DNA of 64,000 nucleotides, from positions 23,684,001 through 23,748,000 of the forward strand of contig OZ024758.1 of NCBI GenBank assembly GCA_964016885.1, written 5' to 3'. Below the pieces are notes generated by a model. That model did not search any database and was not told where the DNA came from. It saw only the letters and a program-made list of their open reading frames with translations. Position numbers and translations under genes: made by a program. Every line of letters starts with the position of its first letter. The stretch's first letter is position 1. Shown in pieces: positions 60,431-61,843 of the stretch. Origin of the DNA: Eledone cirrhosa (lineage: Eukaryota).

Positions 60431-61843
60431 TATATGAAAGACGTAAAATAAGAAAATTTAAAAAATTATAATTAACTTACTTACTAAAATTTTCACTCCA
60501 ACTAATTAGTTTCTGATGACGTAATGAATTCTCAATAGTTACATTGCGTAACTATATTTATTCCATTACAGAAACTAATTAGTTGGAGTGAAAATTTTAG
60601 TAAGTAAGTTAATTTTTAATTTTTAAAATTTTCTTATTTTACGTCTTTCATATAATCGTTCTGCACCCCCCTGCATAGAACCACCTCGGTCCTATGACAT
60701 AACTTATGTATTTGCTAGCATTACTGTACATCTGTACGCATATGTTGGTAAATATACTAATTCTCTATATTTTTATCTCCAAATTATTTATTTGTTGAGC
60801 AAACTTGCCAAATCCACTGCTAATTCATCGTAGTGGTAGTAGGCTCTTGTCATAATACCACCCCACTCCTACTGACTAGCCTCAGTGTCACGTGATTGAT
60901 TCTTTAGAATCTGCCACTTGACCAGAGACAGTGAACTTTTTCAGTGCTATGGAATTCAGTCCCCGCTAGCTGTTCCATCCACCGAATTATTATTTTTATA
61001 TGAGTTCCTAGTGTCCGCGCATTGCCTGGGGACTTAGCTGAGAATAGACTCCCTGATGACGTAATGAATTCTCGATAGTTACATTGCGTAACTATATTTA
61101 TTCCATTACAGAAACTAATTAGTTGGAGTGAAAATTTTAGTAAGTAAGTTAATTTTTAATTTTTAAAATTTTCTTATTTTACGTCTTTCATATAATCGTT
61201 CTGCACCCCCCTGCATAGAACCACCTCGGTCCTATGACATAACTTATGTATTTGCTAGCATTAGTGTACATCTGTACGCATATGTTGGTAAATATACTAA
61301 TTCTCTATATTTTTATCTCCAAATTATTTATTTGTTGAGCAAACTTGCCAAATCCACTGCTAATTCATCGTAGTGGTAGTAGGCTCTTGTCATAATACCA
61401 CCCCACTCCTACTGACTAGCCTCAGTGTCACGTGATTGATTCTTTAGAATCTGCCACTTGACCAGAGACAGTGAACTTTTTCAGTGCTATGGAATTCAGT
61501 CCCCGCTCGCTGTTCCATCCACCGAATTATTATTTTTATATGAGTTCCTAGTGTCCGCGCATTGCCTGGGGACTTAGCTGAGAATAGACTCCCTGATGAC
61601 GTAATGAATTCTCGATAGTTACATTGCGTAACTATATTTATTCCATTACAGAAACTAATTAGTTGGAGTGAAAATTTTAGTAAGTTAATTTTTAATTTTT
61701 AAAATTTTCTTATTTTACGTCTTTCATATAATTGTTCTGCATCCCCCTGCATAGAACCACCTAGGTACTATGACATAACTTATGTATTTGCTAGCATTAG
61801 TGTACATCTGTGCGCATATGTTGGTAAATATATTAATTCTCTC
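60431..61843 (+). mobile_element. Retrozyme- or pLTR-like tandem: about 2.5 copies of a 540-bp HHR-containing unit, preceded by an 85-bp inverted piece
   Basis: CTGATGACGTAATG at 60513, 61053 and 61593. 60431-60515 is the reverse complement of 60569-60654. Confidence 0.85.
61048..61129 (+). ncRNA. Type I hammerhead ribozyme (identical copy at 61588-61669)
   Basis: ACTCC-CTGATGA-C-GTAATG..ATAGTTAC(ATTGC)GTAACTAT..CATTAC-A-GAAA-CTAATTAG-TT-GGAGT. Confidence 0.85.

Follow-up and report, generated by a model that had tools for sequence, protein, structure and literature searches.

The insertion described here is a two-armed copy of a protein-free repeat element with predicted hammerhead ribozymes, one of thousands in the genome of Eledone cirrhosa. 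It was in all likelihood placed in TA repeats by a Penelope enzyme of the Neptune type, which would prime from both cut strands at two fixed internal RNA sites. The observed parts of this reading are the copy number, the TA targets, the combination of one short (S) with one long (L) end, seamless copying across the junction, short-overlap joins, and selection on stem II of the hammerhead. Judged from DNA sequence, the family is a real, young, non-autonomous and Penelope-dependent element of the non-LTR retrozyme kind, a class that is already known.

The 540-nt array and its insertion site

The window, i.e., the whole stretch of 64,000 nucleotides that was analyzed, contains three CTGATGA cores at 60513, 61053 and 61593, spaced by exactly 540. 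The only strong lag in the 530-549 range was 540, and a BLAST comparison of the window with itself gave a self-match of 798 nt at 98.2%. Counted from cut site to cut site, the units at 60585-61124 and 61125-61664 are 99.63% identical (2 bases differ), and the longest ORF in the 540-nt unit spans 84 codons from stop to stop, in agreement with an earlier note on this DNA that had described near-identical, non-coding, head-to-tail units with hammerheads. The cut sites which that note had predicted, after 61124 and after 61664, were recovered by the motif parse, with GUU ending at both, and the first core indeed lacks the 5' strand of stem I. The inverted piece and the TA-rich flanks that it had reported were likewise found: the forward arm (60513-61846), which contains both units, is joined head to head, with a 3-nt overlap (CTG), to an inverted copy of exact length that comprises unit positions 525-540 and 1-~68 (60431-60515), and the whole insertion lies within TA repeats, with TA-rich flanks on both sides. 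The features are as follows.

59050..60430, no strand: TA-rich microsatellite, left part of the insertion target
60431..60515, minus strand: inverted arm, unit 525-540 + 1-~68, whose outer end, the short (S) start site, adjoins the TA repeat
60513..60515, no strand: 3-nt CTG microhomology, head-to-head join of the arms
60513..60589, plus strand: first hammerhead, 5'-truncated (unit 469-540 + 3' strand of stem I), without the 5' strand of stem I
60585..61124, plus strand: unit 1, non-coding, 540 nt between the two cut sites
61048..61129, plus strand: type I hammerhead, predicted cut after 61124 (GUU)
61125..61664, plus strand: unit 2, 540 nt, differing from unit 1 at 2 bases, possibly duplicated locally at a later time
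61588..61669, plus strand: third hammerhead, predicted cut after 61664
61665..61846, plus strand: terminal tail (unit 1-~186), whose end is the long (L) start site with three CT repeats, followed by TA
61847..62970, no strand: TA-rich microsatellite, right part of the insertion target

Neither a primer-binding site nor a purine tract (both judged by eye) nor an LTR was found in the unit, whose ends are of the Penelope type, and no convincing promoter was seen by eye in the element. When contigs from three sets of sequencing runs (one study) were compared with part of the unit, the unit was present, with population variants only.

The window also holds other repeats. Further hammerhead families, at least four in number and with a palindromic stem III, occur at 29541, 31338/31484, 35323/35436, 46437/46589 and 18759, three of them as opposite-strand pairs 110-150 nt apart, which is typical of short two-armed Penelope ends. 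A short fragment at 2024-2155 (minus strand) resembles a Neptune cysteine linker with the start of the endonuclease. Tandem arrays of a 195-202-bp SINE-like unit lie at 1-720, 37207-39383 and 50197-50783, and further arrays have units of 61, 20, 35, 88 and 101 bp.

The hammerhead and its family

Complete type I hammerheads with stems I-III are present in two consecutive units (cores 61053 and 61593). They parse as a 5-bp stem I (ACUCC/GGAGU), then CUGAUGA followed by one additional C, a stem II of 6 bp topped by a long apical hairpin, a further additional A ahead of GAAA, and a stem III formed by the 10-nt palindrome ACUAAUUAGU, followed by the cut triplet GUU. In the hammerhead at 61048..61129, stem II is closed by G61061-C61109 with a C.A opposition at the stem base, and the palindrome occupies 61114-61123. 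The hammerheads of Penelope pseudo-LTRs, as far as they are described in the accessible part of PMC4209133, share the extra nucleotide between A9 and G10.1, the conserved G10.1-C11.1 pair, a longer helix II, a 5-bp helix I, a palindromic helix III and predicted dimeric activity. Unlike them, nearly all copies here have an additional A between C11.1 and G12, and the 10-nt length of the palindrome and the GUU triplet also set the present motif apart.

Because no Rfam family matched the window at the gathering threshold, the hammerhead call rests on motif and covariation. In an alignment of 20 hammerheads drawn from several subfamilies, 97.9% of the stem cells are paired and both stem I and stem II show compensatory changes; at one pair of stem II, U-A, A-U, C-G and G-C all occur. 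The covariation score exceeded 500/500 shuffles and all slid controls; the shuffle test is inflated by the relatedness of the sequences, while four pair types at one position are hard to obtain otherwise. Of 80 segments, 8 could not be parsed; among the 72 parsed copies, 70 had an intact core. By these alignment patterns, stem II is under selection.

Folded as a circle, the 540-nt unit reaches -136 kcal/mol (z -7.9 against 40 shuffles), and in the monomer fold the catalytic core is predicted to be sequestered by pairing with stem III (pair probability 0.85, compared with 0.12 for stem III). A rough additive estimate puts the dimer (a double hammerhead) at about break-even. Two features of the motif, its GUU triplet and the additional A ahead of GAAA, depart from the standard and count against the explanation preferred here. 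Poor in vitro cleavage is also described for hammerheads of Penelope-like elements (PMC4209133, accessible part), and no in vitro cleavage for 8 of 9 Xenopus retrozyme dimers in the available text of Li et al. 2026 (10.64898/2026.07.22.740005). Among 36 selected arms of a sister subfamily, 11 had their 5' end within 15 nt of the cut site. Genome-wide pattern counts of 5' ends gave no clear spike at the cut site (50 versus 49 reverse-strand matches in equal windows), the patterns covering subfamily sets that are not identical and the middle pattern being inflated by a subfamily with an internal TA run. We do not claim the pile-up as a footprint of in vivo cleavage, as it is present in selected loci and not clearly genome-wide.

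The exact pattern from hammerhead core to stem III occurs 9,143 times in the genome versus 0 times for the reversed control, and is thus not due to chance. A search of the animal's own genome (3.0 Gb) with the unit gave 159 matches on many contigs among the best 40 of 3,526 candidates, so that the family is multi-locus; a single-locus unit was among the outcomes that the earlier note had named as refuting its reading. Full-length copies among these matches are mostly 94-98% identical. A sister subfamily with a 526-nt unit, 76% identical to the 540-nt unit, is similarly abundant, and there are several distinct subfamilies, each with a complete unit of 520-570 nt. Most copies are insertions of 1.1-1.4 units in (TA)n, often two-armed. 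One two-armed insertion is found twice, 5.3 kb apart (L061:1420-2384 and 6751-7715); this pair was considered as a coding element and rejected, being a local segmental duplicate. A different hammerhead family with the identical 10-nt stem III palindrome and a (CT)n end adjoining TA was seen at L146:1501-1560.

Metazoan non-LTR retrozymes, as presented in the accessible parts of PMC7229834 and Li et al. 2026, likewise consist of non-coding tandem units with one type I hammerhead each, a palindromic stem III, strong self-pairing and low G+C, and co-occur with Penelope-like elements. The 540-nt unit falls within the range of 51-972 bp given there by Li et al., and is larger than the retrozymes tested by Cervera and de la Pena 2020 (PMC7229834), whose RNAs measure 170-400 nt in the text available. 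In contrast to these retrozymes with their long arrays, most copies here are short, often two-armed insertions in (TA)n, stem II carries the long apical hairpin, and the element is known from DNA sequence. Among the papers listed in a literature search, none was on point for hammerheads or retrozymes of cephalopods; the supplement of PMC7229834 or the bioRxiv supplement may list the family.

Penelope-type ends and proposed slippage at initiation

Among 47 distinct insertions, 34 were two-armed (inverted) and 41 had TA on both sides. In 30 of the 34 two-armed cases the two arms ended at different distances beyond the cut site, one at ~70 nt (S) and the other at ~182 nt (L); S+S and L+L combinations were never seen (0 each), and one odd end occurred in 4. 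The 47 insertions were best matches, and the count was hence repeated on other sets. Short and long ends were paired in 9 of 12 insertions of the 526-nt subfamily. A set of 50 TA-bounded insertions taken from pattern-ordered loci included 30 for which both ends could be classified, and 28 of these combined a short with a longer end; on inspection, the 2 exceptions look like miscalls of the script. The arms overlap in template coordinates, their stop points vary (variable 5' truncation), and most inverted insertions join with an overlap of 0-5 nt, for which reasons the arms look like two separate cDNAs. Long arms wrap seamlessly across the predicted cut junction into another unit.

A tail on only one side of inverted insertions is a known feature of Penelope elements (PMC3846280, PMC8557442, in the parts accessible). 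It has been traced to two internal start sites of the reverse transcriptase, with an enzyme, a predicted dimer, that cuts and extends both strands (PMC11167929). Since the one-sided tail of the present family matches that of Penelope-like elements, we regard the element, on the form of its insertions, as a non-LTR retrozyme, i.e., a non-autonomous Penelope-like element. The retrozyme assignment of the earlier note is upheld as to the type of element and its spread over many loci, and is extended by the two-site tail architecture of Penelope elements, which the note did not name. Other features of endonuclease-positive Penelope-like elements (Penelope/Poseidon, Neptune and Naiad), as given in PMC3846280, PMC8557442 and PMC11167929 within the text available, are also shared: a partial tandem, an inverted 5'-truncated arm, a tail on one arm, two internal start sites and microhomology joins. 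The TA-microsatellite target is of the Neptune/Naiad type. In contrast to those elements, there is no ORF here and (CT)n is added at the long end, and the tail measures ~112 nt versus 30-40 nt in the accessible descriptions of Penelope-like elements and 39-66 nt in the coding families of this genome. Both start sites here contain an AUAU that could base-pair with a TA primer; the anole enzyme, in contrast, initiates at a site non-homologous to the cut DNA (PMC11167929).

Possible helpers are abundant. A GIY-YIG search found many Neptune-like and Poseidon-like families, and coding elements with reverse transcriptase, GIY-YIG and the CxxxxxCxxC linker (Neptune-type) are common in the genome. Of the resolved inverted pairs of coding Neptune-type elements, 6 of 8 had short and long ends (two of these six represent one local duplicate; 2 more pairs were not resolved). 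None of 40 GIY-YIG loci examined, among the best 150 of 10,596 candidates, carried the ends of the present element as its own. Non-autonomous Chlamys elements such as MRC1 are similar in being of the non-autonomous Penelope type, with pseudo-LTRs and head-to-tail insertions of multiple copies, and, in contrast to the family among these 40 loci, match autonomous partners at the 3' end (PMC8557442, accessible part). Two GIY-YIG matches a few kb from hammerheads of the family were considered as helpers and rejected, as they are separate insertions.

The ends of several coding Neptune-type families (L087, L088, L095, L097, L102, L103, L092 and L098) carry a non-canonical hammerhead-like motif, in which UUUUGA or similar replaces CUGAUGA and stem III is a palindromic CCGG. 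One of these, L087, looks full-length: two such ends (about 2423 and 7402, minus strand) enclose an open frame of 938 aa. In one coding family (L102, L076) the end site is the same on both arms, unlike in the other three families.

Internal copies of the L site contained at most two CT repeats in 49/49 cases (exactly two in 47), versus more than two, and up to 31, in 34 of 42 terminal L ends. The simplest reading is that (CT)n at L ends arises by reiterative slippage at initiation, and later microsatellite growth may lengthen the runs. A second irregularity is a 4-nt deletion 15 nt past the cut, found in 31 of 117 segments (passes), including the terminal tail of the window; other two-copy 4-mers of the unit almost never delete. 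This slip is independent of insertion age, affects terminal and internal copies equally and is mixed within 22 of 61 insertions, and so behaves like a reverse transcription error made anew at each pass and not inherited. Addition of (CT)n at the long end only and a 4-nt slip recurring independently at each pass are apparently new details, and among the papers listed in our literature search none was on point for such slippage in Penelope-like elements.

Template, alternative explanations and significance

Derived alleles are shared within insertions at 0.37-0.56 (single-unit loci), versus 0.10-0.18 between insertions, and several single-unit insertions have rare alleles common to their tail and their unit; both observations fit repeated copying of one monomer sequence. 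In five multi-unit arrays, terminal and internal copies shared 1 of 26 rare alleles, versus 10 of 17 between internal copies (p 9e-5), a difference absent from single-unit loci (6/56 versus 12/90); the mismatch speaks against rolling on one circle for those five arrays. In the window, the last 182 nt lack four alleles present in both internal units, and the array is thus not the product of simple rolling on one circle. The proposal of the earlier note that the insertion was copied from a circular or multimeric template therefore holds for the copying across the cut junction, which is seen in the sequence, and fails for simple one-circle rolling at this locus. The allele pattern fits either later local duplication or a separate template. 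Locus L062 shows a two-unit alternation (a higher-order pattern) and locus L063 four adjacent units that all carry the 4-nt slip, which points to local amplification. Later local duplication best explains the array patterns, so the window dimer is probably partly local in origin, and its second unit may be such a duplicate.

For the family as a whole, a plausible though minority alternative is that the same Penelope-dependent element uses an uncut multi-unit transcript as template, the hammerhead being slow or gated by protein, no circle being made, and long arrays being masters or local amplifications. The predicted sequestration of the monomer core agrees with this, as do rare alleles that in part track unit rank across both arms at L063 and L028, and the patterns of local amplification at L062 and L063. 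In vitro, moreover, the one Penelope enzyme studied did not need hammerhead cleavage and mainly used uncut RNA as template (PMC11167929). On the other hand, the strong stem II covariation across subfamilies ~76% identical implies that the ribozyme is needed, the 4-nt slip does not build up in internal copies, and the rare alleles common to tail and unit in single-unit insertions also argue against an uncut template. Retrozymes of coral, mussel and axolotl yield circles (PMC7229834, accessible part). Within the preferred Penelope-dependent reading, a circular monomer ranks highest among the templates without reaching an even chance, an uncut multimer is a reasonable second choice, and a linear monomer with end-to-end jumps is rather unlikely.

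It is improbable that a coding Penelope-like element still to be discovered is the source, with the copies being just its truncated 3' ends (pseudo-LTRs) and not a self-propagating non-autonomous family. Their architecture is identical to that of the ends of coding elements (PMC8557442, accessible part), and rare coding copies could escape a scoring of the best 40 candidates per DNA search. Every long arm, however, wraps into another 520-570-nt unit and none enters a Penelope ORF, so that the family is not merely the pseudo-LTR of a coding element, the doubt that the earlier note had raised. No ORF with reverse transcriptase and GIY-YIG was present in the unit or upstream of the arms at the loci inspected, nearby Penelope protein matches are separate insertions and not upstream in frame of an arm, and a complete unit is retained in each of several distinct subfamilies. 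The idea that DNA-level events spread an ordinary satellite or a local duplication, with a hammerhead look-alike, has next to no probability left: the possible local origin of the second unit and the zero Rfam count are in its favor, but the dispersal over many contigs, the fixed ends with 5' truncation of varying extent, the head-to-head joins and the compensation within stem II leave it, in our judgment, largely refuted.

On the preferred reading, in which a Neptune-type enzyme writes the retrozyme into TA repeats, tandem copies would be transcribed, and hammerheads paired through the palindromic stem III would cut out a monomer of ~540 nt that is likely ligated into a circle. A helper dimer with reverse transcriptase and endonuclease would nick (TA)n on both strands. 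Synthesis would begin ~70 nt beyond the cut site from one primer and ~182 nt beyond it from the other, in each case at a short AUAU stretch that pairs with TA, and the start at the L site would slip and add (CT)n. The two cDNAs would extend beyond the junction, end at random points and anneal. Local duplication would later add units to some long arrays, probably to that of the window as well. In a more detailed and rather doubtful version, the insertions would be a genomic record of Penelope integration. The dimer would bind one circular retrozyme RNA, with one start site per active site, and prime both strands of the TA break; the long site alone would receive (CT)n, through telomerase-like reiterative slippage, and copying would then proceed round the circle. 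The 4-nt slip would be purged each generation, with only intact monomers serving as templates.

The family bears on how animal retrozymes move and on how Penelope enzymes complete an insertion; the link between retrozymes and Penelope elements has so far come mostly from co-occurrence and terminal similarity. Thousands of young copies, two fixed start sites with one per arm, and a repeat addition specific to one start give exact in vitro predictions for a Neptune-type enzyme, and the regularity of the ends makes the mechanism of the Penelope enzyme testable. The family may thereby reveal a telomerase-like step in a reverse transcriptase that is related to telomerase.
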